From the IMG/VR virus record IMGVR_UViG_3300032093_000005: a stretch of DNA of 64,000 nucleotides. One strand, written 5' to 3'. This DNA is from a virus. Its lineage: Duplodnaviria; Caudoviricetes. The notes under the pieces were generated by a model that searched no databases, had not been told where the DNA came from, and worked only from the letters and a program-made list of their open reading frames with translations. The translations under genes were made by a program, and so were the position numbers. Of the stretch, positions 11,522 through 60,063 are shown one piece after another; position 1 is the first letter of the stretch; each line of letters opens with the position of its first letter.

Positions 11522-11956
11522 TTATTCAGTAAATGATCTCAAAAACCAAACAAACTTTCCGTGTGCCTCATTGAGATCATCAAGTAAATTTGTTGTACCT
11601 CTTGAATTAAGTTCTTCTGCGATCTTTGCTGCTTCTCCAAACATTTCAATTATTGTAGTATGACATTTCAAGAGATCTTTAATCATCTCCATTTCAGAGA
11701 GACCACTTTTTGCTTCTGATACTCTGGATACTTCTGCAACTCTTGAGAGAGCACTAACTGGTTTAGCACCAAGAAATCTCATATGCTCGGAGATTCTATC
11801 AATCTCTTCAAAGAGTGCAGTATATTGCTCACCAAACATTGTATGAACTTGATAGAAATCAGGTCCAGTAATATGCCAATGATATACCCAAGTCTTTTGG
11901 AAAAGTACAAAAAGACTTGCTTGAGTATCAGAAAGTATTTTATATAGTTTTTCCAT
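11522..11956 (-). CDS. dps: Dps / ferritin-like DNA-protection protein
   Basis: YHWHITGPDFYQVHTMFGEQY...DRISEH, HGKFVWFL; Dps size. Confidence 0.9.
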   Translation of the reverse strand: MEKLYKILSDTQASLFVLFQKTWVYHWHITGPDFYQVHTMFGEQYTALFEEIDRISEHMRFLGAKPVSALSRVAEVSRVSEAKSGLSEMEMIKDLLKCHTTIIEMFGEAAKIAEELNSRGTTNLLDDLNEAHGKFVWFLRSFTE

Positions 11957-14601: not shown

Positions 14602-14674
14602 CTGGGGCGGCAGGGATCGAACCTGCGACCTAGATGTTAACAGCATCCCGCTACTACCGCTGAGCTACACCCCA
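14602..14674 (-). tRNA. tRNA-Asn(GUU)
   Basis: U1-A72, G73, GGATG-CTGTTAA-CATCT. Confidence 0.95.
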
Positions 14675-14967
14675 TTATGTTGTTCGTGATGTATTTCTCT
14701 ATGGCAATTAGCACACACAAGAATACATTTATCTGCTTCTGCTTTTTGTTTTTCTATGGCAGCGGTGGTTCCAAGATTTTTTGTTTCTTTGGTAGTGGGA
14801 TCAAGATGATGAAACTCTAATGCAGAAATGCATTTATTGTAACCACATCTTTCACACTTACCACCTTTATATTCTACTAGAAGAAGTTTGTTTTGCTTGC
14901 GTCTTTTAATGACACTTGCTTTATTTGCTTCTCTACGATCAGCATAGGTTCTGGTTTCCTTAGTCAT
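14665..14967 (-). CDS. HNH endonuclease (putative homing endonuclease)
   Basis: KCERCGY, EFHHLDP, CILVCANCHREIH; stop inside tRNA-Asn; late promoter at 14995-15002. Confidence 0.8.
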   Translation of the reverse strand: MTKETRTYADRREANKASVIKRRKQNKLLLVEYKGGKCERCGYNKCISALEFHHLDPTTKETKNLGTTAAIEKQKAEADKCILVCANCHREIHHEQHNGV

Positions 14968-25694: not shown

Positions 25695-27155
25695 TCAATT
25701 CTGAGTTACATAATACTCAACCATATCATCCCAGGTATATTGTGAAAGATCATAACCTTCCTCTACAAGACCATTCACCCACTCTTGAATTTCTTCAGCA
25801 AGTAAATAATCCTCATATTGTTCCATGATTGTACCAATTGCAGTTTCATCCATTTCCATCATAATGTAATTTGCTTCGTCTAAGGTGTCTGCATGACCCT
25901 CAGACAGCAAGTAATTTAAAACAACATCGTAAGGTTGATATGATTCTTTTGCAGTTACAGGGGTTTTATTTTGCTGTTCCAATTTTTTCTGTTGCCTTTC
26001 TTGTTCTGCCTTTAAAGCATCTTCTACTGCTTTAGTATCAATTTTTCCAGGACCTTCCGGACCACCCATCAATTCTCCCTGACGCTGCTTAGATCTGTTG
26101 CCCATTTTACGAAGTTCTTCAGCATCTTTTTCCATTTGACTTTGACCAGTGCCCCTTTGAGTGCCATCTGGGTTTAGTTTAGCAGCAAGTTCTGGTTTTG
26201 CCTTTGCCCAAGTTTTTAGTCCTAGTTCTTCTGCTTCTTTAGTTTTTCCTTGTTTAATGAGTTCTTTATACTTAGAAGTTACAGAATCAGACTTTGGTTT
26301 TGTAGGTGTTGCAGTAGATCCTCCTCCACCACCGCCAGATCCAGAAGGTGTTGCAGGTGGTTTCGGTGATGCTGTTGGTGCTGCTGGTGTTGTTGTAGCT
26401 GGTTGTGGTGATCCTGTTGGTTTTGATCCAGAACCTGCACCTCCAAGTTTTGCTCCCATATATCCAGCAAGAACACCAGTACCTCCGATTAATGCACCTT
26501 TAGCAATTCCTGGAAGTACTGCTTTTGCTTTTGAAGCAACATCCTTTACTTTTTGAGTTGCTTGACTTAGTTTTGCCTTTGAAAGTAATTCTGCAGACTG
26601 CTTACCAGTCATTGGTTTTCCACCATCAACTGGTGATTTTGTTGGACTATATCCACCAACATTTCCTTTTCTCGCTTCCTTTTGAGCAAGATTTTGTATT
26701 CTTCTTCTTGCTACTTCAGGTCTTTTGGAATTTTGAATTATATTTGCAACTTTTTTTCTTGCAGGTTTTGATGCTATTCTTCCCGCAAGTTTAATGGCAC
26801 CACCTAACAATTTATCTGCCAAACCCTCATAAATTGCAACATCAAAAAGTTCTAATTGTTCTTGAATATAATCTTCAGAAACTACACTTTCGGTAAGAAT
26901 ACTTTCATCAAAACTCAAATACTTTTCAATAATTGTTTCTTCTGAAGAATCTGCAAGAAATCCAATAATACCTTCAGCACTATATCCTTCATAAACCATT
27001 GAAGTTGAAATAGTAGCAAGAATATCCTCTACTATTTCTGCTGCTTCCGCATCATAATATTGAGAATCTTCATTCAAAAAATCTTCCTGTTGGATATTGA
27101 TTTCTTCATACAAATACCCAACAGAATTAATGAAGTCTTGCGAAATTCTAGACAT
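25695..27155 (-). CDS. Late low-complexity protein, acidic-domain paralog family
   Basis: YLLSEGHADT..EANYIM..M and WVNGLVEEGYDLSQYTWDDM motifs; TATAAATA at 27186-27193. Confidence 0.75.
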   Translation of the reverse strand: MSRISQDFINSVGYLYEEINIQQEDFLNEDSQYYDAEAAEIVEDILATISTSMVYEGYSAEGIIGFLADSSEETIIEKYLSFDESILTESVVSEDYIQEQLELFDVAIYEGLADKLLGGAIKLAGRIASKPARKKVANIIQNSKRPEVARRRIQNLAQKEARKGNVGGYSPTKSPVDGGKPMTGKQSAELLSKAKLSQATQKVKDVASKAKAVLPGIAKGALIGGTGVLAGYMGAKLGGAGSGSKPTGSPQPATTTPAAPTASPKPPATPSGSGGGGGGSTATPTKPKSDSVTSKYKELIKQGKTKEAEELGLKTWAKAKPELAAKLNPDGTQRGTGQSQMEKDAEELRKMGNRSKQRQGELMGGPEGPGKIDTKAVEDALKAEQERQQKKLEQQNKTPVTAKESYQPYDVVLNYLLSEGHADTLDEANYIMMEMDETAIGTIMEQYEDYLLAEEIQEWVNGLVEEGYDLSQYTWDDMVEYYVTQN

Positions 27156-27198
27156 GGTTATGATTTTAATACCTTTTTATAAAGATATTTATAAAAAA

Positions 27199-28743
27199 TC
27201 ACTTACCAGGAAGTGCTTTTACCCCAAGTTTCTTATTGCGAGCAGCATCATTTTGTCTTGCTTTTTGAAGTGCTTGTTGTGCTTTTACAGCATCATGCTT
27301 CTTGTATGCACCTGCAAACATAGTTCTTCCAATTCTTTCTAATGGATTAGAAGAAGTTTTAGCAAGAGATTGAGCACTTGGCCCTGCCTTATAAACTGCT
27401 TTACCATCCTTAAACGCAAGATGTCCTGCTGTTGATTGCCCACCTCTTTGAACTACACCAGTTTTAGCAAGTTGAACAGTTTTTCTTTGTGATCCAGAAC
27501 CAGTTGACATAAATGCAGGACCACCTGGTTTTTTCTGACTAAATGATGTTTGTCCACCAATACCTTTAATTGCAGTTCCTGCTTGCTTTTGACGATTTGC
27601 TGTTGCCATTGCTTTTCTTTCAACCGCATTAGCACCAGCAACAACATCAAATGCCTTAGATGCTGCCATTGCAGCACCGGTTCCTGCTGCAAGAGATCCT
27701 ACTGGAGTAAGTGGAGCGCCTGCTGCTGCACCTAAAGCACCAGCACCACCAACTACAGCAGCTTTAAGTCCTGATCTCAACCAACCAGAACCTTTTGCTC
27801 TTTCATCAGCAACATCAAGTGCTGCTGCTGCAGGTCCAAGAAGTTTTCCACCGATTCTTCCAGCTCGTTTAAGTCCTGATGGAATTTTAATTTTTGGTCC
27901 AGTAGGTGGTTTTCCTCCAGTTTGTCCAACCGCAGGAAGTGCTGGTGGTTTTCCTCCAGAACCTCCAGAAGATGTTCTGGGTGTAGACGCTTTATCATAT
28001 GCACCTCTCATCATAGCTTCTGGGGGTGCCTGTGGATTAGTTCCACGAGTTGCTAATTTGCCGGCAGGTTGCTTGGCATCGTATGCTGCTGCTCTTGCTT
28101 CTTTTGCTGCTGCTCTGTTTCTTCGCTCAGCTGCTTCAAGTTCTGGAGTAAATTCTCGCCTACCACGACTACTAGTTGATCCTGAAGCAGGTAAAGCAAG
28201 TCTTGAAGGAGTTCCAGAAAGTGTTCTATTTCCATAAGGAACTCTACTTGAAGGTGGTTCTGGAGTTCCATATTTTTTTGGCGGGTTTCCAGGAAACTGT
28301 TGCCAAGCATCAGCAGCAGCTCCTGACGGTTTTCTTGCAGGACTTGCTACTGTAGTTGTTTTTCCTTGAGGACTTACTTCTGGTTGAGTTGTTTGAGATG
28401 CAATTTTATTAGTTTGCGAAACTTCTGGTGCTGCATTTGCCGATGCTCTTGCTCTTGCACTTCTAATTGCAGGAGCTCCTGCAGATCCTCGCAATGGTTG
28501 TCTCTGTCTCCCTAAAGCAGAAGGACCACCTAATCTTTGCTTGCTTCTGTTTGGTAGACTATTATATGTATCTCTATCTAATCTATCATCCAATCTTTTT
28601 AGTGGATCATTATTACCTAAAGCAACTGATCCTGCAAGAGGGGTAGTTGCAGCTGCTAATGCTGCTGCAGCTTCAAGATCTCTTTTCTTTTTTTCATCTT
28701 CATTCAAATATGACTCTTGTAAAAACTGACTAAAAGACTTCAT
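27199..28743 (-). CDS. Late basic Ala/Gly/Pro-rich protein with a capsid-targeting-like N-terminus
   Basis: MKSFSQFLQES; glycine-zipper hydrophobic segment; TATAAATA at 28764-28771. Confidence 0.75.
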   Translation of the reverse strand: MKSFSQFLQESYLNEDEKKKRDLEAAAALAAATTPLAGSVALGNNDPLKRLDDRLDRDTYNSLPNRSKQRLGGPSALGRQRQPLRGSAGAPAIRSARARASANAAPEVSQTNKIASQTTQPEVSPQGKTTTVASPARKPSGAAADAWQQFPGNPPKKYGTPEPPSSRVPYGNRTLSGTPSRLALPASGSTSSRGRREFTPELEAAERRNRAAAKEARAAAYDAKQPAGKLATRGTNPQAPPEAMMRGAYDKASTPRTSSGGSGGKPPALPAVGQTGGKPPTGPKIKIPSGLKRAGRIGGKLLGPAAAALDVADERAKGSGWLRSGLKAAVVGGAGALGAAAGAPLTPVGSLAAGTGAAMAASKAFDVVAGANAVERKAMATANRQKQAGTAIKGIGGQTSFSQKKPGGPAFMSTGSGSQRKTVQLAKTGVVQRGGQSTAGHLAFKDGKAVYKAGPSAQSLAKTSSNPLERIGRTMFAGAYKKHDAVKAQQALQKARQNDAARNKKLGVKALPGK

Positions 28744-28763
28744 CTTCTTCTTACTTTTTTAGT

Positions 28764-28797
28764 TATTTATAAAAAAAGAGGGTTGGTTAGACCCTCT
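28764..28797 (-). terminator. Terminator fused to a late promoter
   Basis: AGAGGGT..ACCCTCT-TTTTTT-TATAAATA. Confidence 0.8.
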
Positions 28798-28820
28798 GAT
28801 AAACTATTTAAAAAATTGTA

Positions 28821-29900
28821 TCACGCACCTCTTACTTGTGAAGATGCTCCAGAACTACCCTTTTTTTCTTGCTCAATCTTTTTTCTCTCATCCTCACGCA
28901 CTTTTAAAGTTGCTCTTCTTTGCAGTTCTGCACCAGCCATATTAGCACCGAAAGAACCATAAGCTTCCACAATACTTTGTCTCCATTCTTCACTCATATT
29001 TGCCATAATGACTGCTGCTGCTTCTTCAGTTTCAGCATAACCTTCGTCAATTAGATAACCTTGAACGATATCGAATAGGTCTAAGTCCATATTCAATCTG
29101 CGCTGTCTAATTTGCTGTTGAAGATTTGGTTTTGATGTAGTAGCAGCAGGAGCAGGAGTTGTTGCCGCAGCAGGAGCAGATGTTGTAGGTCTAGTTGCAA
29201 GTGCTCCAGTACCAGTCAAGTTTGCACCTGTTGCTCTAAGTTGCTGTGCTTGTCTAAGTTCAGCAGAAGTTGGAGTTCTTCTTTCAATACCACCGACTAA
29301 TGGTTTACCTGTTGGTCCTAGTTGTGGTTTAGGAGCAGGTGCAGAAGCAGGTCTTGTAGATGTTTGTACTGCAGGTCTTGCAGGTGCAGAAGCAGGTGCT
29401 TGTGTTGCAGGTCTTGCTGGTGCTTGCACTACAGGTCTCGTAGGTGCTGGTTGTCCAGGTCTCTGGAAAATAGGAGACATTCCTGGTTGAACTGGTTTAC
29501 CTTGAATATTAAAACCACCAGGACCAATTGTAAGTCCACGAAGATTTTGTGCAGATGCAGGTCTTGTGGATGCTTGTGCCTTTTGTCTTTGAAGATATTC
29601 ACCAGTAGTAGAAACTCTTCTATTTGCTTCTACTCCACCAATTCCTTGACGCATCAATTGTTGAACTTTTGCTTTTCCACCACCGGCATCAAATGCAGTT
29701 AATTCATTCAAATATTCTTCATACATATCTTCCCAAGTATATTCACTGAGGTCATAACCTTCTTCTACAAGTGAATTTACCCAGTTCTCAAAGTCCTCTT
29801 GAACTTGCTCTTCAGTCAGTTCAACCTCTTCTTGAGGAGCATAAACATTATTATATGCTTCCATCATATTAAAAGCATCAGTTCCAGTAATTCTAGACAT
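28821..29900 (-). CDS. Late low-complexity protein, acidic-domain paralog family
   Basis: MMEAYNNVY, WVNSLVEEGYDLSEYTWEDM, DLFDIVQGYLIDEGYAETEEAAAVIMANMSEEW; APARPA repeats. Confidence 0.75.
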   Translation of the reverse strand: MSRITGTDAFNMMEAYNNVYAPQEEVELTEEQVQEDFENWVNSLVEEGYDLSEYTWEDMYEEYLNELTAFDAGGGKAKVQQLMRQGIGGVEANRRVSTTGEYLQRQKAQASTRPASAQNLRGLTIGPGGFNIQGKPVQPGMSPIFQRPGQPAPTRPVVQAPARPATQAPASAPARPAVQTSTRPASAPAPKPQLGPTGKPLVGGIERRTPTSAELRQAQQLRATGANLTGTGALATRPTTSAPAAATTPAPAATTSKPNLQQQIRQRRLNMDLDLFDIVQGYLIDEGYAETEEAAAVIMANMSEEWRQSIVEAYGSFGANMAGAELQRRATLKVREDERKKIEQEKKGSSGASSQVRGA

Positions 29901-29928: not shown

Positions 29929-29962
29929 TATTTATAAAAAAAGAGGGTCTTAACGACCCTCT
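29929..29962 (-). terminator. Terminator fused to a late promoter
   Basis: AGAGGGTC-GTTAA-GACCCTCT-TTTTTT-TATAAATA. Confidence 0.8.
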
Positions 29963-36069: not shown

Positions 36070-37098
36070 TCATGCAGTTACTGTCAATGTAGTTGTACCT
36101 AATCCAACTGATCCAGTAGTTCCAGCACCACCAACATTACGAATAAGAACATCACCAAATTGAGAGGTGAATGAACTAGTAACACCTACTCCATTAGATC
36201 CGTCAGTGATAACTCCAACAAATCCAGATGGAACATCAATTTTAAGAACTGTTGCGTTAGTACGAGTACTAAAAGTAACAGCAAGACCAGCAGTAATTGT
36301 AGATGCAATTGTATTGGCACTTCCAATTCTTACAAAAGTGTCTCCAATTGAAACTACTGGGGTATTAGTAAGTTTTCCAGTAATTGTAACTGAACTTCCA
36401 ACAGACACTCCAGATACAGAATCAACAAAAATTACAGTAGCACCAACCCCCACAGTTTGACCAGATGTGGTGGCAGTGATTAAGAAAGGAACATTTGCTG
36501 TTAAAACTGTTGATGGTGCAGTAAATCCAAATGCTACTCTATTAGTAATTTGACCATTAAATTCAGTATAAACATTTGGTGACCCATGTGTTGCTGCGTC
36601 ACCTGCCCAAGCATATTGCGTATTCCCGTTTGATGATGCATATCCAATGATCGCTGTTGATTCATTAGCACCATTTGCATCAAAAGCGCGGATGCGAACT
36701 GTTGAACCAGCCCCAGCAAAAACAAGTTCATTAAACACTACATGAACATATCCAGTTTGTCCTGTAGTAATGCCAGTTGTTCCACCACCACCTACAGAAA
36801 TTGGTGATGCTTGATTTGGATCCTCAAAGAAAACAGCAACTGGGCCCCCTACACCAATACCAGGAGTTCCACCAGTATTTGTAGTATTCAGTCCAACGAC
36901 AGGAACTAATACTTCGTCATAATAACGAGTTGAAATACCAGAGTTTGCTTTTGTTTTGTATCTTCTTACTACCCAACCACGAACATCTGCAAAACAATTC
37001 CAAGGAGTTGTATTTCTGTCTGTCTCTAACAGATGCTTTGGAATAGCGTAGTTATTAGCAGCAGTTTCGGAAGTTGTAGAAATGCCCCAAAGAGCCAT
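36070..37098 (-). CDS. Probable virion structural protein
   Basis: MALWG N-terminus, Thr/Gly/Val beta-rich; terminator plus TATAAATA at 37130-37168. Confidence 0.6.
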   Translation of the reverse strand: MALWGISTTSETAANNYAIPKHLLETDRNTTPWNCFADVRGWVVRRYKTKANSGISTRYYDEVLVPVVGLNTTNTGGTPGIGVGGPVAVFFEDPNQASPISVGGGGTTGITTGQTGYVHVVFNELVFAGAGSTVRIRAFDANGANESTAIIGYASSNGNTQYAWAGDAATHGSPNVYTEFNGQITNRVAFGFTAPSTVLTANVPFLITATTSGQTVGVGATVIFVDSVSGVSVGSSVTITGKLTNTPVVSIGDTFVRIGSANTIASTITAGLAVTFSTRTNATVLKIDVPSGFVGVITDGSNGVGVTSSFTSQFGDVLIRNVGGAGTTGSVGLGTTTLTVTA

Positions 37099-38711: not shown

Positions 38712-40046
38712 TTAACGTTTTACTTTTTTCCTATTTTTATTTATCAAATTAATACCATAAGGTTTTCCACCACTTTCAAGATTTTTAGCACCAACTCCAA
38801 TAACACCAGGAGTCATCATTGCAGCATATCTAAAAGCACCTAAAGTTCCAACTAACGTATTAGGTTTTCCTGGAAGTCGCATCATCTTATCCATTTGCTT
38901 TTCAGAGTAAGATTCTTTGACATCTTTAATCCAAGATTTAAACATCATCCCATTCTCAGTTACACAAATGAGATAATTAGTTCCTCTACGAATAATTTTA
39001 CCATTCAATCCAGTATTTAAATTTTCAACAAAGGTTCCAACTTTAAAAATACTTTCATCAATATAATTTTCTCTTAAAGATTTTTGATCAAATTTTGGAG
39101 CAATTTCCCAAGTATTATATCCTTCTTGCTGAATTTCTTGAATACCCATTCCTTGACGAACTAAATCAAAAAGTTCAAGTGCTTGTTTATTTCTAACTCC
39201 TTTTGGTAAAGCGGAACGGAAAGTCATAAAATCTCCCTCCGCTGCAGCAAGACGTGACCTTGATGCAGATACTCCTTCTACACCTTTATTACTATCAGGA
39301 TCCCTATCACCTGCAGAAAGAACATCAATCACATCAAACTGATATAGTTGTCCATTATAATCGTTTGATAATCTTTCAAATTCTTTGACTCGATCTGCAC
39401 CACCAACAATCCTTACGTTGCTGTATCCGTCATTATGTGCTTTTTTAAGCACATCAAAAATGGTTCTGTAATTGACATCATTGACAATTCTCTCACTATG
39501 GTCAGGGAACATCCGCCTCATGTATGAAATCTTAGTATCAGGATCTAGAGGATTTTTCTTTTTATCCTGACTACGAGAAGGGACAATGATATAATCACCA
39601 CCATCCTCCATTGCTGCCATTGCTGCAGTATCCATCAATTGTTGATGTCCAATGGTAGGAGGATTGAAACGACCAAAAGCAACAGTCAGAGTCCCTTTTG
39701 TTTTAGGAACGGGTGGCGGTGTTGCTACTGGTGCTTCTTCAGGTGCAGGTTGTTGATCCACTGCCTGCTGGTCCATAGGCACCTGTTCTTGAGGAGCAGG
39801 AGCAGAGGGTGCTGGGGCAGCAGATCCAAGAGGGATATTTTTTTCAAATTCTCCTTGCTTAGGATCCTTTCCACCGATCACTTGTCGCTTGTTGAAATAC
39901 TTCAATTGACCACTCACGGTCTTTGCCTCAAATTCACCAGTGGCCCTATTATACCACCCTCCGTGCCCATCGCCAACAAGTCCAAGACGTTTTGCCTGAA
40001 CTGATGCGGAGGTTGCCTCTGTAATGAATTGGGAAAATGTTTTCAT
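38712..40046 (-). CDS. Cytidyltransferase-like (HIGH family) cyanophage protein
   Basis: FGRFNPPTIGH, SRSQD..KNPL, GGADR, SAGDRDPD, SAS; N-terminus MKTFSQFITEA; ATAAATA upstream near 40100-40116. Confidence 0.85.
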   Translation of the reverse strand: MKTFSQFITEATSASVQAKRLGLVGDGHGGWYNRATGEFEAKTVSGQLKYFNKRQVIGGKDPKQGEFEKNIPLGSAAPAPSAPAPQEQVPMDQQAVDQQPAPEEAPVATPPPVPKTKGTLTVAFGRFNPPTIGHQQLMDTAAMAAMEDGGDYIIVPSRSQDKKKNPLDPDTKISYMRRMFPDHSERIVNDVNYRTIFDVLKKAHNDGYSNVRIVGGADRVKEFERLSNDYNGQLYQFDVIDVLSAGDRDPDSNKGVEGVSASRSRLAAAEGDFMTFRSALPKGVRNKQALELFDLVRQGMGIQEIQQEGYNTWEIAPKFDQKSLRENYIDESIFKVGTFVENLNTGLNGKIIRRGTNYLICVTENGMMFKSWIKDVKESYSEKQMDKMMRLPGKPNTLVGTLGAFRYAAMMTPGVIGVGAKNLESGGKPYGINLINKNRKKVKR

Positions 40047-53458: not shown

Positions 53459-54601
53459 TCAGAATGTACGGTTCAGGTCAACTTCGTGACCGCCCTCAAT
53501 CGTCAATTCAAGTTCACTAGTGGGCATCTTGAAGTCAGCATCCACTTTATCATACAGTTCCAGAAATGCTTGCTTGGTTTCGTCATCAAAGCGGTTCACA
53601 CACACTTGAATTGCCTTCGCCTTATCATTGAAGATACTGTAGGCACGGATGATATGAACCAAGCGACGGGTGCTGATGATTTCCTCAATACCACCATCGT
53701 AGAAGGTCTTGCGGATGATGTCTGCCCAGTCTACCAGGCGCTTGCAGAAGTCACGGTCTTCCACTTGCAAGTCCAGAGCGATGCCTTCCAGAATCTTCTG
53801 TTCGGTAGCAGGGGCAGGATAGGACTGCTCAAAGGTCACAGGGAATCGTTCCAAGAATGCTTCATTAAGAACATTAGTGCCAATGAATCGACCATCATCA
53901 CTACCTTTACCTTTGGTATTAGCAGTAGCAAAGACATTAAATCCAGCAGAAGGTTTTACAAACTTACCAATCTTTTTCAGGAAGACACCTTTACCTTCCA
54001 GAATAGATTGAAGACACAGAATCTTGTTAGAAGCAAGGTCAATCTCATCCAGGAGTAGAATCGCACCCCTCTCAAGTGCTTCCACCACAGGACCATTGTG
54101 CCAGGCAGTTTCACCATTCACAAGACGAAAACCACCAATCAGGTCATCCTCATCAGTCTCAATCGTGATGTTGACACGAATCAATTCACGTTTCAGTTGG
54201 GCACAAGCTTGCTCCACACCGAACGTTTTACCATTACCCGAAAGACCCGTAATGAACGTAGGATAAAAAAGACGGGACTGAATAATCTTTTTGATATCAC
54301 CAAAATTACCAAACTTGACGAAGGTATCATCTTTATCAGGAATGAGGTTTTGTTCCACAGCAGGGAGGGCAGCAGGTGCTTGATAAGAACGCTCAATCTC
54401 TTCAACACGTTCTTGAGTAATTTCAAGATTCCAACGACCACGATCTGTTTTGAAAGGTTCAAGATAACGAGTTACCGTAGGATAAGAGATTCCTTTAGAT
54501 GCACAGTAACCACGAACATCTGCAGCAGAAAACTCAGTACCATACATAGACTTGAGTTCGGAAATGAGTTGTTCGTTATTCACAGAAGACTTGCGAGACA
54601 T
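53459..54601 (-). CDS. cobS: CobS-like MoxR AAA+ ATPase
   Basis: GLSGNGKT, LLDEID, ATANTKG, LNEAFLERF, ISTR. Confidence 0.92.
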   Translation of the reverse strand: MSRKSSVNNEQLISELKSMYGTEFSAADVRGYCASKGISYPTVTRYLEPFKTDRGRWNLEITQERVEEIERSYQAPAALPAVEQNLIPDKDDTFVKFGNFGDIKKIIQSRLFYPTFITGLSGNGKTFGVEQACAQLKRELIRVNITIETDEDDLIGGFRLVNGETAWHNGPVVEALERGAILLLDEIDLASNKILCLQSILEGKGVFLKKIGKFVKPSAGFNVFATANTKGKGSDDGRFIGTNVLNEAFLERFPVTFEQSYPAPATEQKILEGIALDLQVEDRDFCKRLVDWADIIRKTFYDGGIEEIISTRRLVHIIRAYSIFNDKAKAIQVCVNRFDDETKQAFLELYDKVDADFKMPTSELELTIEGGHEVDLNRTF

Positions 54602-54693: not shown

Positions 54694-55734
54694 TCAACGC
54701 ATTGATGGGTTTCTTTCAGCAGCACTCATTGATCCATGATCTCTAGGATCATCATCATCTTCTCTGTCTCTCATTTGCTTTTGTCTTTGCTTTTTCATTT
54801 TTAAATTTTTCTGAGTCTCCAAATCAGCATCAGAAGTTTGTTGTGCTCTTGCAGTTGAAGATCCTCTTTTTCCTTTTGCCTGCAACTTATAAAAAAGGCG
54901 AGTTGCTTCATCAAGATCTTCTTTACTCATGTTTGCCATGAGAACTAAAGCATCTTGATTGGTATCAGCGTAACCTTCAGCAACTAAGTATTCAAGAAGG
55001 TAATCAAAAAGGTCTACTTCCTCTCTTACACCTGCAGATGGTCCGCCAGATCTATATCCAGCAACTCTCTGCGATAATGCTGATTTTTCTCTTGCCTTTC
55101 TTTGTGCTTCATCTTGTGGTTTGGTTGTCAATCCAGAAGTAACAGAACGATCTAAACCTCTGACAGTTGATGTTCCACTAGACATGCCAGTAGGTCTAGT
55201 TCCAACACCACCACCAAAATATCCAGGAGAAATAGGAGTTCTTGGTCCAGATGGTGCTGCCACAGTTGGTTTCTCTGGTGCTGCCATAGATCCTGGACCT
55301 TTTGGCATATCAACCATTAAAGGATTAGGAGTTTTTGTTAATTGTGGTTTTTGTGAAACAACTGGAGGTGTTGTTGTTTTATCTACTTTTGGTTTTTGTG
55401 CTGCAGGCGCAGTTACTTTTGGTTTTTCTCTTGGTGTTCTTTTTGGTCTTTCAGTTCTACCATCATCTCTTGTCTTTGGTGAAGGAAACTTTGGAATATT
55501 TACTCTAGGAATAGAATTATCAGGTTCAGGAAGGGTTAGTCCTGGAAAACGAGGAACTACTGAACGAACACTATATGGATTAATTAAACTTTTTACACCA
55601 TATTGAGTATCAGCAGCATGTGCCTCATCAATGAGATCAGATGAATTATTATACTCGTTTGCTTTCTCTCTCAATTCATCATTATAAACTGCCTCATACA
55701 TAAGGCGAATATCTTGAACCTGTTGGGAATTCAT
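54694..55734 (-). CDS. Late low-complexity protein, acidic-domain paralog family
   Basis: LMYEAVY, DLFDYLLEYLVAEGYADTNQDALVLMANMS; Pro/Lys/Arg core; ATAAATA at 55760-55766. Confidence 0.75.
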   Translation of the reverse strand: MNSQQVQDIRLMYEAVYNDELREKANEYNNSSDLIDEAHAADTQYGVKSLINPYSVRSVVPRFPGLTLPEPDNSIPRVNIPKFPSPKTRDDGRTERPKRTPREKPKVTAPAAQKPKVDKTTTPPVVSQKPQLTKTPNPLMVDMPKGPGSMAAPEKPTVAAPSGPRTPISPGYFGGGVGTRPTGMSSGTSTVRGLDRSVTSGLTTKPQDEAQRKAREKSALSQRVAGYRSGGPSAGVREEVDLFDYLLEYLVAEGYADTNQDALVLMANMSKEDLDEATRLFYKLQAKGKRGSSTARAQQTSDADLETQKNLKMKKQRQKQMRDREDDDDPRDHGSMSAAERNPSMR

Positions 55735-55765
55735 ATGAGTTGTTGTACTTTTCTAAGATTATTTA

Positions 55766-57910
55766 TTACGCAACCAACTCCACAAACTCCCCAAGAATAC
55801 GCTTGTTCATCTTCTTAGACTTCAAACTCTTCACAAAAGCAGATTTGATTTGAGACTTGGTAGCATCTTCAGCAACCTCAAATTCAGATTCCTGAGCAAG
55901 AGTTGCGGCAGAAAGACCAAAGTAGGAATGATAACCAGAAGACTTGATAGTAAATGCCTTTTCTTTTTTCCAGGCATTCATCACCTTATCATAGGTGTCA
56001 CCATAATACCCACAATAGCGGCGAATAAAACCACCAGCATCACGAGATTCCAGAACACGAATACCGATAAAGTTCATATCAGTAAACCTGTCCCGAAGAT
56101 TGCGAAGCAGAACATCAGTGAACTCGTGATACTCACAATCGCAAGAATAAGTCATACCAGTCTTACGGTCACGGAGAAAGGCATTAGGACCGATATGAGC
56201 AGTGCCCATATAAGCGTCTTCCTCCCAGCGGCGTTGAACTTCACGGTGATACTTGAGCAGAGCACCCTCACCATCAGTCAGAATCACACACTGAACCTTC
56301 TGAAGCTTGTTTTCCTTCTGGAACTTAGGAAGAATCTGATGAAGAGAAATCAGTGCCTCATTCAGCGGAGTTCCCGAAAGACTCATACCCATAGGGGCTT
56401 GATAGGAAGTATAAGAATTATAACGGAAAGAAGTAGCAAGGCGGAAGATATTCTTCATCTGCTCATCCAGAGTCTTGCTGTTTACTTTGCTGGTAAGAAG
56501 ATTCATCATAGAGAACCATTCACCAACCTGAACGAGACCATCCTTTTTCTTATAAGCAAGTTCACGAATGTTTGCCTTACCATCTTCATACTTCACCAGA
56601 GGATAATCAGTAGTGAAGGCATAAACCTCAAACGGAATTGAGACCTTCTTACAGAACCAAACAAGGTTGAACAGTTGTTTGACCGTATCCATCATCACTT
56701 CGCACATAGAACCAGACCAGTCCAGAACGAACACCAGACCGTGATTCTTACCATCAGAAAGAGTGGTGACTTTCTTGAAAAGGTCTTCGTTATATTTGTA
56801 AGTATGAAGTTTGGTGCAGTCCAGAACACCAGTGCGAGCAGTGGTAGCACGGGCATAGGAATCTGCTGCCTTGCGACATTCAAACTCTTTTACCAGATAG
56901 TTGACTTCTTTCTGTGCAGAACGCTTGAACTCTACAAAATCCTTATCAACTTTACCAAACACATCAACATAGTTCCATTCACGATCTTGAAGAAAAGAAC
57001 TCCATGTTACTTTACACTTTTCATGGATTTCAGAATTGGGAACAATTACTTTATTAAGATCAAGTTTAGGAAGTTCAAGGTATACATTCTCATATCCATC
57101 ATTGTTAATGAGATCTTTAAGTGCTTCCTCAAGATTGTCCATCGTCTTAACTTCAGGTTCTTCACCATCATCAGGACTCTGAGAAGTAGGTTGCTTCTCC
57201 TGTCCAGTTTCACTCGTTGTGGGAGGTTGAGATTCACTATCAGATCCAGGTTGGTCATTCTCACCCTCTTGCTGATCTGAAAAATCAGAGGCAGGTTGTT
57301 GACTTGCACCAGAATCCTGAGACTCCAGATTATCAATTGGAGTCTTAGTTTCTTCCTGTTGCTTTTGCTTACAATACTTATAAAGTGCCTCAGAAGCAAT
57401 CAAAACATCGGCAAAGGTCTCAGTATCGGCAATCAGATTGATAATCTCAGTCTCTTCACCACGTTCAATAGGTACATCAATATAGTTACCGATCTTGAAC
57501 CAAAGGTTGGCACGGTCAGCAAGATTATAGGTTTCCAGATTGTCGTCTTTGAGTTGGAAGAAATCATCATCGGCAAGTTCTTTATAACCGTTATAGAAAG
57601 TCTTGGCAAGACCAGGATAACGGCGTTTCATCAGTTTTTCGATACGAGCATCCTCTACAATGTTCACAAACTGAGGAGGGACTTTAACTTGCTTAGTCCA
57701 GTCCTCATCGGGAGTATAAAGAGCATGACCAACTTCATGACCAACCAGAAGGTCATAAACAGTGTTGCTTGCCTTTTCCCACATCGGCAGGGTCAACACA
57801 CGGGTGTGTACATTGAACTGAGCAGTCTCTACCTTCTTGTGCTCAACCACAAGGTCTTCGGTGGCAAGCAGTTTGGCAAGTTGAGACTTGATTTCGTGGC
57901 GAACGGTCAT
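55766..57910 (-). CDS. CobT-like protein: N-terminal HExxH domain, acidic linker, vWA domain
   Basis: GHEVGHALY, NIVEDARIE, LDWSGS MIDAS, SGTPL, LTDGE. Confidence 0.88.
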   Translation of the reverse strand: MTVRHEIKSQLAKLLATEDLVVEHKKVETAQFNVHTRVLTLPMWEKASNTVYDLLVGHEVGHALYTPDEDWTKQVKVPPQFVNIVEDARIEKLMKRRYPGLAKTFYNGYKELADDDFFQLKDDNLETYNLADRANLWFKIGNYIDVPIERGEETEIINLIADTETFADVLIASEALYKYCKQKQQEETKTPIDNLESQDSGASQQPASDFSDQQEGENDQPGSDSESQPPTTSETGQEKQPTSQSPDDGEEPEVKTMDNLEEALKDLINNDGYENVYLELPKLDLNKVIVPNSEIHEKCKVTWSSFLQDREWNYVDVFGKVDKDFVEFKRSAQKEVNYLVKEFECRKAADSYARATTARTGVLDCTKLHTYKYNEDLFKKVTTLSDGKNHGLVFVLDWSGSMCEVMMDTVKQLFNLVWFCKKVSIPFEVYAFTTDYPLVKYEDGKANIRELAYKKKDGLVQVGEWFSMMNLLTSKVNSKTLDEQMKNIFRLATSFRYNSYTSYQAPMGMSLSGTPLNEALISLHQILPKFQKENKLQKVQCVILTDGEGALLKYHREVQRRWEEDAYMGTAHIGPNAFLRDRKTGMTYSCDCEYHEFTDVLLRNLRDRFTDMNFIGIRVLESRDAGGFIRRYCGYYGDTYDKVMNAWKKEKAFTIKSSGYHSYFGLSAATLAQESEFEVAEDATKSQIKSAFVKSLKSKKMNKRILGEFVELVA

Positions 57911-57931
57911 GGGTTTGTTGCGTATGAACCT

Positions 57932-57987
57932 ATCATACAAAAAAAGAGGGTGATGAGACCCTCTAGTGTGCCAGTTTGAAAAGTGTC
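57932..57987 (-). promoter_or_regulatory. Terminator, -10 box and operator-like motif
   Basis: GACACTTTTCAAACTGGCACA, AGAGGGT..ACCCTCT-TTTTTT, TATGAT. Confidence 0.65.
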
Positions 57988-59910
57988 TTAATTTAGTTTT
58001 TTAGGTTTTGGTTTGGTAGATGAAGGTGGTTTGCCTTGAAGAGCACTCTGTATTTTACCTGGAAGTTCATCAACAAATTTTACAACAGATGCTGGCATTT
58101 GGGGAGCACTTCCACCAGTAACTGCTTCAACAATATTTTGTTTCCAATCTTCACTCATTGCACCAGCGATTGCTTGTGCTGACTTTTCATCAGAAGCAAA
58201 ACCCTCACCAAGAAGATAATCTACAAGAAGTTCTTCACGAACTGAGCGAATATTTTCATATTCAGATCCACTACCTCTACTGCCAGTCATTCTATGTTGA
58301 GAAAAAGTATCCCCTACTCTTTCATCTCCACGCTTCTTTCTTTCTACTCTTCTTTTCTTTTCAAATTCATGTCTTTTTTTAGGACTCATTTTTTTCTTTG
58401 GTATTGGAAGTCCCGTAATACCTTCTTCAGTTTCGTCTTTTGCTTCGTAAATTGCGTTTTCTTTCATTTTAGTAGTGTACTCCTTTCCACCATAAGTGAA
58501 TGTTGTTGGAACTGGATCTCCAATTCTCTTTGCCTCCTTTTCCTTTCTTTTTGCCTCTCTGAATGCATCATCAAATGTAGAACCAATCTTACGAGAACCA
58601 ACTTTTAAGCGACTACGAATTTGTCCTGTTGGTTTATCTACAGATGGTGTATCAATAGTATTATAAACATTAGTTTTTATATTCTTTCTCAATTCAGCAT
58701 CACTTCTACGCTTTTCACCCTTCATTGCTTGATCAACTGCTACAGTTCCAGCAGCTGCTGTACCAACAATTCCCGCAGTTTTTAGATTTCTTGATAAAGA
58801 AGAAATTGGAGATTTTGACGAACCACCAGAAGAAGATGATCCTGTTGCATATTTTTCTAAACCTGGATACTTCATATTTCCAGTTTTTTCTGTGGGTGAT
58901 AAAGTAGCGCGAACAGTTTGTGTCAAACCACTACCTTTAGATGATTTTCCACCCCCAGAAGTAGGTGTCTTTGAAGTTGGTTTAGGTGCTCTTGTACTAA
59001 CTAATGCTCCTGCTGGTTGTGCTACCTTTGGATCTTTAGGTAATGCTTCTGGTTTAAAGGTTGGCTTAGGTGCTTTTGTACGAACTAATGCTCCTGGAGG
59101 TTCGGCAGACTTTGTTGCCTTAGGAAGTGCTTCTGGTTTAAAAGTTGGTTTAGGTGCTCTTGTAGAAACTAACGCTCCACCAGGTTCTCCCGTTGTTTTT
59201 GCTTTAGGAAGTGCTTCTGGTTTAAAGGTTGGTTTAGGTGCTTTTGTACGAACCAATGCTCCTGCAGGTTCAGCAGACTTTGTTGCCTTAGGAAGTGCTT
59301 CTGGTTTAAAAGTTGGTTTAGGTGCCTTTACACTTGCAGATGTTTTTCCTGCCGAAGGAAGTGCTGGTCTGGATGGTGTACTGGGTAATGCCTTAGTAGA
59401 AGATACTTTAGGACCAGAAGGTTTAGATGGATTTATACGACTGCTAGGTGCTGTTGGTTCATTCCAAACATTAGTTGTAATTTTATTTGCACCTTTTGGA
59501 GCAGTTCTAACAGAAGTTGCTTTTACTGTTCTAACTATTGGTGCTGGAGATGGCGTAGACTTTGCAATAGTTTTTGCAATTTTAGCAGTCGATACTGGAT
59601 TTAATGCGGTACTAGTAATAAGAGAATCAGTAGCTGCAGTTCTTAATGGTGTTTTTGCTCTTTTTGCAATAAATCCCGCTACTGCCTTTGCACCCTTAAT
59701 TAAAGATCCTAGACCTGCCTCACTAATAATTTCTGCCATGATCTGTTTAGATTCTTCTTCAGAGTATCCTTCATTTAGAAGATACTCTAAAACCTGATCA
59801 TAGATATCAATTTCTTCTTGAACATCATTTTCCGAATGTACATCAATATGCTCATAAACTTTTTGATATGCCTCTACAAAATCTCTATATTTTTTATCGT
59901 ACATCTTCAA
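57988..59910 (-). CDS. Late low-complexity protein with internal repeats, acidic-domain paralog family
   Basis: FVEAYQKVY, YDQVLEYLLNEGYS..IMAE, LVDYLLGEGFASDEKSAQAIAGAMSEDW; TATAAATA at 59926-59933. Confidence 0.78.
   Translation of the reverse strand: MKMYDKKYRDFVEAYQKVYEHIDVHSENDVQEEIDIYDQVLEYLLNEGYSEEESKQIMAEIISEAGLGSLIKGAKAVAGFIAKRAKTPLRTAATDSLITSTALNPVSTAKIAKTIAKSTPSPAPIVRTVKATSVRTAPKGANKITTNVWNEPTAPSSRINPSKPSGPKVSSTKALPSTPSRPALPSAGKTSASVKAPKPTFKPEALPKATKSAEPAGALVRTKAPKPTFKPEALPKAKTTGEPGGALVSTRAPKPTFKPEALPKATKSAEPPGALVRTKAPKPTFKPEALPKDPKVAQPAGALVSTRAPKPTSKTPTSGGGKSSKGSGLTQTVRATLSPTEKTGNMKYPGLEKYATGSSSSGGSSKSPISSLSRNLKTAGIVGTAAAGTVAVDQAMKGEKRRSDAELRKNIKTNVYNTIDTPSVDKPTGQIRSRLKVGSRKIGSTFDDAFREAKRKEKEAKRIGDPVPTTFTYGGKEYTTKMKENAIYEAKDETEEGITGLPIPKKKMSPKKRHEFEKKRRVERKKRGDERVGDTFSQHRMTGSRGSGSEYENIRSVREELLVDYLLGEGFASDEKSAQAIAGAMSEDWKQNIVEAVTGGSAPQMPASVVKFVDELPGKIQSALQGKPPSSTKPKPKKLN
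58976..59328 (-). repeat. In-frame tandem repeat, about 4.2 copies of 84/87 nt
   Basis: KAPKPTFKPEALPK...(E/Q)PxGALV(R/S)T repeated with an alternating A/B pattern. Confidence 0.9.
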
Positions 59911-59928
59911 AAGATACTTTTTAGATAT

Positions 59929-60063
59929 TTATAAAAAAGAACCGCCCCGTGAGAGGCGGTTCTTGAGTGCTTGGCGTCGTGCCTTTGCTTGTCGGAGTGC
60001 TTGCGGTTTCAGTTTCCGCTTTTGCTCCTTCTTGGAATGTTTCTGCCAATTTGGGACTTTCAT
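59929..60063 (-). CDS. 44-aa basic microprotein (not in ORF track)
   Basis: MKVPNWQKHSKKEQKRKLKPQALRQAKARRQALKNRLSRGGSFL; 3' end forms the terminator GAACCGCC..GGCGGTTC-TTTTTT. Confidence 0.6.
   Translation of the reverse strand: MKVPNWQKHSKKEQKRKLKPQALRQAKARRQALKNRLSRGGSFL

Follow-up and report, generated by a model that had tools for sequence, protein, structure and literature searches.

Late proteins of a T4-like cyanomyophage that carry a T4-type capsid-targeting N-terminus or a conserved leader with a probable dimerisation module

T4-like cyanophages are among the most abundant marine viruses. The stretch of DNA analysed here (the window; 64,000 nucleotides of IMG/VR virus record IMGVR_UViG_3300032093_000005) comes from a T4-like cyanomyophage and is part of the single 96.5-kb contig that constitutes the genome, the wider contig carrying nrdA/B, gp46/47, gp43, cobS and psbA. 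We describe five long genes in the window, called A to E below, and find that their products are of two kinds: B begins with a sequence that has the residues of a T4-type capsid-targeting peptide, and A, C, D and E share a leader and an acidic module with a very large group of unannotated phage proteins. The nearest isolate is the freshwater Synechococcus phage S-SRM01, in which three syntenic genes labelled 'hypothetical protein' lie between a homing-endonuclease-like gene and nrdB, and which has orthologues of A, B and C, that of A being QPX48236. The neighbourhoods of A to E consist of replication and metabolic genes and not of the tail module.

All five open reading frames (ORFs) are on the minus strand (Table 1). 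The late-promoter box TATAAATA occurs nine times in the window, on the minus strand only, against 3.46 copies expected for both strands together, and none of 100 shuffles matched this count. Four of the nine copies sit 20–35 nt upstream of A, B, C and E, hairpin and T-run terminators lead the promoters of B, C and E, and the box of D lacks only its first T. A to E are late genes, and the claim of the original prediction that each of five long late ORFs has its own promoter holds at the coordinates it gave. Exact boxes also stand upstream of further minus-strand genes (11522-11956, 14665-14967, 19318-19902 and 36070-37098), which encode a Dps-like DNA-binding protein, two homing-endonuclease-like proteins and a Gly/Thr-rich 342-aa protein (phrog_11617).

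The proteins have acidic termini and basic cores. An acidic module of 40 residues, module 1, with the consensus (D/E)xxxxYLxxEG[YHF][AS], has one copy each in A, C and D and two copies in E. Module 2 (WVNxLVEEGYDLSxYTWxDM) is found in A and C, and C and E have an exact N-terminal EAYxxVY motif, for which D has YEAVY and A a degenerate form; the three motifs had been predicted for four, two and three proteins, respectively, and were found as such. A profile of module 1 recovers all four of these proteins, with E-values from 1e-24 to 1e-43, and finds no further copies in the 96.5-kb contig. Neither module occurs in B, so the supposed paralogous family of five is better described as four related proteins, which do share modules, and one member of a separate family. 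Pfam searches of A to E gave nothing credible, and their PHROGs matches, such as that of C to phrog_3708 (9e-20), are all to families whose function is unknown. A, C, D and E each combine the module 1 profile match with a late promoter and an N-terminal (L/I/M)xE(A/S)Y leader, a variant of it in D and A, and this combination is how we define the family.

Between these conserved parts the chains differ. A has an acidic N-terminus of 110 aa with the degenerate leader MSRISQDF..YLYEE, followed by an Ala/Gly hydrophobic stretch (residues 210-235) and a basic Pro/Ala/Gly core; the core of C is disordered and rich in Pro, Ala, Thr and Gln; D has a Pro-rich basic core and a charged tail; and the 28-aa repeats of E are a recent internal expansion of its basic core. 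Sites of the form [IL]xE, which the original prediction had called dense in the modules, are more frequent than composition predicts in A (13 observed, 6.3 expected, p = 0.005) and in D (5 observed, 1.7 expected, p = 0.018), with no excess in B or E. Three Gly/Ala hydrophobic cores had likewise been proposed, and such stretches are present in A, in B (residues 322-374) and, weakly, in E (residues 378-396). They contain Lys and their Kyte-Doolittle peaks are 1.0-1.5 over 19 residues; with a maximum of 1.46, a reading of these segments as membrane helices is weak.

Table 1. Positions in the window of genes A to E, their promoter boxes and protein features, and the tagged cytidylyltransferase gene.
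Feature	Position	Strand	Basis or remark
Gene A, 486 aa	25695..27155	-	ORF, motif and profile search
TATAAATA late-promoter box of A	27186..27193	-	exact motif
A module 1, from residue 410	25794-25955	-	motif
A module 2, from residue 459, C-terminal end	25698-25790	-	motif
Gene B, 514 aa, pI 10.9, predicted disordered	27199..28743	-	ORF, motif search
TATAAATA late-promoter box of B, hairpin and T-run terminator before it	28764..28771	-	exact motif
B T4-type capsid-targeting N-terminus, MKSFSQFLQE/SYLNE/ (slashes, putative cleavage sites)	28696-28743	-	sequence starts MKSFSQFLQES
B Ala/Gly-rich hydrophobic region, residues 322-374	27622-27780	-	hydropathy
Gene C, 359 aa, phrog_3708	28821..29900	-	ORF, motif and profile search, AlphaFold2
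TATAAATA late-promoter box of C, hairpin and T-run terminator before it	29929..29936	-	exact motif
C leader, MSRITGTDAFNMMEAYNNVY..ELTEE	29808-29900	-	motif
C module 2, from residue 40	29703-29795	-	motif
C module 1, from residue 277, long helix after it	28935-29096	-	motif and AlphaFold2
Cytidylyltransferase (NMNAT-like) gene, 444 aa	38712..40046	-	phrog_395, E = 3.7e-100
Cytidylyltransferase tag, MKTFSQFITE/A	40017-40046	-	contig-wide tag-pattern scan
Gene D, 346 aa, between cobS and CobT/VWA-like zincin gene	54694..55734	-	ORF, motif and profile search
ATAAATA late-promoter-like box of D, first T absent	55760..55766	-	near match
D leader, ..RLMYEAVYNDE	55660-55734	-	motif
D module 1, from residue 244	54877-55029	-	motif
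Gene E, 640 aa	57988..59910	-	TTG start 59910; alternative ATG two codons in, 59904
TATAAATA late-promoter box of E, hairpin and T-run terminator before it	59926..59933	-	exact motif
E leader, ..RDFVEAYQKVYE	N-terminal	-	motif
E module 1 copy a, from residue 38	59665-59826	-	motif
E module 1 copy b, from residue 560	58096-58245	-	motif
E tandem repeats, four 28-aa units APKPTFKPEALPKA..	58974-59332	-	4.2 copies of 84-nt unit, 80% matches

In phage T4 the first ten residues of the internal proteins are enough for packaging, with targeting set by residues 4 and 7 and processing by residues 8 and 10, and the gp21 protease cleaves after L/I-x-E (PMC9026906). The T4 N-terminus cited in the original prediction, MKTYQEFIAE, is indeed how IPII and IPIII start in the T4 record (with Ala after the cleavage site), and IPI starts MKTFKEF. 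Protein B, as predicted, begins MKSFSQFLQES, and its first ten residues fit M-K-(T/S)-(Y/F)-x-x-F-(I/L)-x-E at every key position (F4, F7, L8 and E10). MKSF(S/N/K)QFL.E is kept in 114 of the 120 B homologues listed, which diverge sharply past residue 16 or so, in a search whose candidates were chosen by shared words and which therefore favours conserved stretches. The 514 residues of B hold two [IL]xE sites, at residues 8-10 and 13-15, and only two ORFs of the 96.5-kb contig carry the tag pattern, B and a cytidylyltransferase. No homologue of B was found in S-SCSM1, S-SCSM2R, S-SZBM1, S-CREM1 or S-CRM01. In the ESM Atlas B is predicted to be disordered (pLDDT 0.47), and the look-up gave no functional lead. 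By these residues the N-terminus of B is a genuine T4-type capsid-targeting sequence, a T4 internal-protein hallmark that the original prediction had recognised, and B is a strong candidate substrate of a T4-type targeting and processing system. A literature search for capsid-targeting sequences of cyanophages gave only the T4 review (PMC9026906). A, C, D and E start MSRISQDF.., MSRITGTDAFNMMEAY.., MNSQQVQDIRLMYEAVY.. and MYDKKYRDFVEAY.., respectively, and do not fit the consensus.

The cytidylyltransferase serves as an internal positive control. Its orthologues in six other cyanophages (S-SM1, Syn9, S-SZBM1, S-CRM01, S-SCSM1 and S-CREM2) all start M-(K/R)-x-F-x-x-F-(I/L/F)-x-E-A, for example MKKFSAFLNEA in S-SM1, MRFRQFIIEA in S-SZBM1, MKSFLQFLKEA in S-SCSM1, MKNFSSFLTEA in S-CREM2 and MKLFNQFFKEA in S-CRM01. 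Mass spectrometry has found the enzyme in purified virions of S-SM1 (PMC3037559), S-SZBM1 (PMC9146016 Table 1), S-SCSM1 (PMC9602691) and S-CREM2 (PMC10665884 Table 3), a recurrence that the conserved tag would explain. In addition, the major capsid protein (gp23) of S-SCSM1 has GSFLAE/A aligned with the T4 cleavage site GSFLTE/A, and S-SCSM1 gp21 is 43.6% identical to T4 gp21. With tag, virion detection, cleavage site and protease homologue in place, it is plausible by analogy with T4 that such a targeting and processing system operates in these cyanophages. Three S-SCSM1 ORFs have one of the two leaders, the T4-type tag or that of A, C, D and E. Two are virion proteins on record; the remaining one, S-SCSM1_30 (106 aa, MKTFKQFMSE/S; L037 2216-2536), is encoded between the genes of two virion proteins, closely upstream of that for the large terminase, and is a candidate for a small internal protein that proteomics missed.

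The family of A, C, D and E extends far beyond the window. C has 1,055 homologues at E ≤ 0.001 among 8,000 scored candidates, all of them unnamed, and their N-termini are strikingly conserved (MSR(I/L)TG.DA..L.EAY.AVYAPQELTEE), with (L/I)xEAY in 87 and MxEAY in 24 of the 120 listed. A profile of the acidic module across phages, which the original prediction had proposed as a follow-up, was built from 50 sequences and searched against 1.84 billion proteins; it matched 4,405 cluster representatives at E ≤ 0.001 and 2,673 at ≤ 1e-10. Of the top 145 matches 84 carry [LIM]xE[AS][YF] in their first 35 residues, and many of the remainder are, by our reading, short and probably partial gene calls. The module is present in one to three copies per protein and at any position, N-terminal, internal or C-terminal. 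On these profile matches A, C, D and E are members of a very large family of unannotated aquatic phage proteins, in which a leader and at least one module are combined with variable, mostly basic and disordered linkers. In Syn9, S-PM2 and S-SM1, the classical phages of cyanophage proteomics, neither C nor module 1 has a homologue, and no module was found in S-CREM2.

One relative is itself recorded as a virion component. S-SCSM1_89 (QFG06346.1) has a late promoter, the leader ..SLSEAYAAVY, a Lys-rich basic core, module 1 (E = 9.5e-12) and a basic tail, and mass spectrometry of virions purified on CsCl found it there (PMC9602691); its record is labelled 'virion protein', a label used in that genome for proteins detected by mass spectrometry and shared by _90 to _93, among them the tagged cytidylyltransferase and _92, which has a module-2-like stretch. 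The architecture of S-SCSM1_89 is that of C and D, but it has an unrelated core cassette and is encoded next to the cytidylyltransferase gene rather than nrdB or cobS. This conserved core (KGKHGQ..MVSGDSKMSGAEYTHGRRVKAANPG..) is shared by 247 cyanophage records, some with module 1 and some without it: in S-SCSM2R_205 (L011 6001-7593) it follows an N-terminal module, and in S-RIM2 SWRG_00161 (L040 1-1785) it is the C-terminal end of a 632-aa protein without the module. Since one cassette thus stands in differing architectures, the variable cores are really shuffled, and the idea of interchangeable cargoes is borne out to that extent. In S-CRM01 the module proteins are g93, g94, g291 and g292. 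There g95, g94 and g93 (L004 5418-6312) are small consecutive ORFs under one TATAAATA box, g95 corresponding to the leader (..SLQESYLEVYEGY), g94 to a truncated module and g93 to a full module, and they look like a split family member.

What is module 1? An AlphaFold2 model of C (61 homologues) has confident helices in the leader (residues 6-20), module 2 (30-46 and 56-70) and module 1 (275-285, 292-301 and 304-348); the modules are helix-turn-helix structures with pLDDT of about 90, and the remaining chain is disordered. Residues 262-350 of C gave a predicted homodimer with a score of 0.49, against 0.06 for the best of three controls; in the benchmark of the homodimer mark, 21 of 30 proteins solved as one-chain pairs reached it and none of 23 single chains did. 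The runs agree in at least 81% of contacts with partner pLDDT of at least 65, and the predicted symmetric interface (residues 287-306) is the invariant stretch EGYA..A..IMANMSEEW. No Pfam family corresponds to module 1, a sequence-profile search of the PDB with the module gave nothing significant, and Foldseek on viral models found only family members. LisH, a dimerisation motif that is essentially eukaryotic, is a known domain that it resembles: at E ≤ 0.001, 7 of 112 relatives match LisH (PF08513), and three relatives scanned individually pass its gathering score of 21.6 (25.4, 24.3 and 21.8 bits), over the module's first helix. The likeness lies in the first helix and turn (..ILxYLLDEGY..), and the module has two short helices followed by a long one and is predicted to form a symmetric homodimer; the second helix of the module (A..IMANMSEEW), on the other hand, is specific to the family, and no solved structure matches the module profile. 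The variable position and copy number, the LisH-like first helix and the conserved predicted interface all favour pairing over addressing as the role of the module, and module 1 is probably a dimerisation (self-association) domain. Among 365 unique copies two (I/L)xE sites are conserved inside the module, L(I/L)xE/G in 82% and SI.E/ at the module end in 67%, the latter mostly followed by A, G, E or S, so that cleavage within the module is conceivable. The LisH-like module family is undescribed.

Just downstream of A lie genes for a lysozyme and a C39-like peptidase (23482-24150 and 24249-24920, minus strand), whose products start with a shared module some 45 aa long (M..DLHNFF.FYD..N.NHV.AVQWLEDNLP). 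S-SCSM1 virions were found to contain two cell-wall hydrolases (PMC9602691), and the lysozyme and peptidase of the window may therefore be virion-borne too. D and E flank a CobS-type AAA+ ATPase gene (53459-54601, minus strand) and a gene for a 724-aa protein (55766-57940, minus strand), whose PHROG matches are annotated as peptidase and as cobalamin biosynthesis (CobT-type) and which has an HExxH motif; we read it as a CobT/VWA-like zincin. No link was seen between this CobS/CobT-like pair and the candidate cargo proteins.

The explanation we favour, to which we give an even chance, is that A to E are late proteins carried in the virion, most likely inside the head, and of two kinds, the tagged B and the leader-plus-dimerising-module proteins A, C, D and E. 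By analogy with T4 IPI-III, the tag would dock B to the prohead core and a gp21-type protease would remove it after L-x-E, so that a disordered, very basic protein would stay with the DNA. In A, C, D and E the N-terminal helix that ends in (L/I/M)-x-E-(A/S)-Y-x-x-V-Y would be the leader and cleavage site, whereas module 1 would self-associate and so serve pairing, not addressing; multi-module proteins or mixed pairs of paralogues could link basic cargo into a prohead-core network. The conserved leaders (MKSFSQFLQE in B and LxE-AYxxVY in the others) are thus better tag candidates than the module. Virion carriage, which the original prediction had put forward, agrees with the recorded presence in purified cyanophage virions of S-SCSM1_89, with its EAY leader and module, and of the tag-bearing cytidylyltransferase; head location, cleavage, ejection and a DNA-condensing role we infer.

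Several observations weigh against this explanation. The leaders of A, C, D and E do not match the T4 consensus, and S-SCSM1_30 has the T4-type tag yet was not detected in virions. Virion detection comes from phages other than this one or S-SRM01, and for the module family from one phage, S-SCSM1, whose authors concede that abundant late proteins may have co-purified (PMC9602691); S-SZBM1_194 (707 aa, with module 2) is not among the 30 virion proteins of S-SZBM1 (PMC9146016). The dimer is a prediction that was run without an alignment, the window's own modules do not match Pfam LisH even at E up to 10, and the matches from a structural search of PDB representatives were helical and non-specific (best Z = 5.7).

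That A to E are made late but do not stay in the virion, acting as scaffolds or chaperones removed before maturation or as envelope or lysis factors, we consider unlikely. In this phage as in S-SRM01, A, B and C lie directly upstream of the C39-like peptidase and lysozyme genes; Ala/Gly-rich hydrophobic stretches are present in A, B and E; the acidic helical parts are similar to the degradable scaffolds gp22, gp67 and gp68 of T4; and S-SZBM1_194 went undetected. However, a position next to lysin genes is no argument against packaging, since the cell-wall hydrolases of S-SCSM1 were found in its virions as well (PMC9602691); the hydrophobic stretches are weak for membrane helices, given their hydropathy and Lys content; no signal peptides were seen in A to E; S-SCSM1_89 and _92 are recorded in purified virions; and B has a T4-type tag, as does a cytidylyltransferase that is repeatedly found there. 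A place on the outside of the virion, as fibres, whiskers or decoration with the module as a fibre or chaperone oligomerisation domain, seems to us very improbable. Virion detection by itself gives no position in the particle, a dimerisation module with long low-complexity linkers could form flexible external filaments, and tail-fibre genes are among the neighbours of S-SCSM1_89; but the model is one of helix-turn-helix and disorder, with no beta-rich, collagen-like or trimeric coiled-coil features, the strongly basic, Pro/Lys-rich cores are unlike known fibres, the genes lie outside the tail module, and the LxE-bearing leaders point to the prohead protease pathway.

The original prediction had made the acidic module itself the capsid-targeting and processing tag, docking interchangeable cargo to the scaffold core before being cut off by the prohead protease. 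This now appears improbable. The two conserved in-module sites, the acidity that the modules share with T4 scaffold proteins, the lack of (I/L)-x-E sites in the cores and the recurrence of the same basic cassette beside modules in different arrangements would all suit such a role. The T4 tag, however, is a strictly N-terminal peptide of ten residues, whereas the module takes any position (N-terminal in S-SCSM2R_205) in one to three copies and occurs together with a distinct conserved leader at the N-terminus; ahead of module 1 in the chain there is no conserved (I/L)xE site, so that a cut would not free the core; its invariant residues map to the predicted symmetric dimer interface; and its central E-G fits a structural LisH-type turn as well. 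We also consider, with little confidence, a variant in which the LisH-like modules would cross-link A, C, D and E as homo- and heterodimers in the prohead and the protease would cut both in-module (I/L)-x-E sites, dissolving the network into polycationic fragments, which would condense the DNA or exit together with it. If true, this would be a protease-dissolvable, modular way of loading cargo, found widely among ocean cyanophages and different from the N-terminal tag of T4.

Published cyanophage proteomes list the cytidylyltransferase and many 'virion proteins' without explanation, and a T4-type address tag, as on B and the cytidylyltransferase, is one explanation of how proteins reach these virions. 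The analysis also defines a second, very large unannotated family by its conserved leader, LisH-like pairing module and shuffled basic cores. Should these proteins prove to be head cargo, they would be a cyanophage counterpart of the T4 internal proteins and a pointer to what enters picocyanobacteria with the DNA, and the tags and module would offer a practical means of getting foreign proteins into cyanophage capsids.

Two groups of T4 proteins invite comparison. With gp67, gp68 and gp22 the family shares acidic helical segments rich in L/I-x-E sites; the N-terminus of gp67 (MEGLIE/A) resembles the ..LIE/AY leader of the family, and gp68 joins an acidic N-terminal half to a strongly basic C-terminal half, as do A, C, D and E. 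There is no detectable homology, and the cyanophage proteins are much longer, have repeated modules and are encoded outside the head gene cluster. Nothing in cyanophage S-SCSM1 matched gp67 or gp68, whereas gp21-24 were matched, and an analogous role may therefore be vacant. The T4 internal proteins differ from B in being folded proteins of 8-20 kDa where B has 514 aa and is disordered, and their mature parts have no sequence similarity to it; the consensus is absent from A, C, D and E, which have the LxE-AYxxVY leader instead. What B and the cytidylyltransferase have in common with the T4 internal proteins is the N-terminal M-K-(T/S)-(Y/F)-x-x-F-(I/L)-x-E with its aromatic residues 4 and 7, I/L at 8 and E10, and a small residue next to E10; a late promoter and a mature part that is basic are also common to them.

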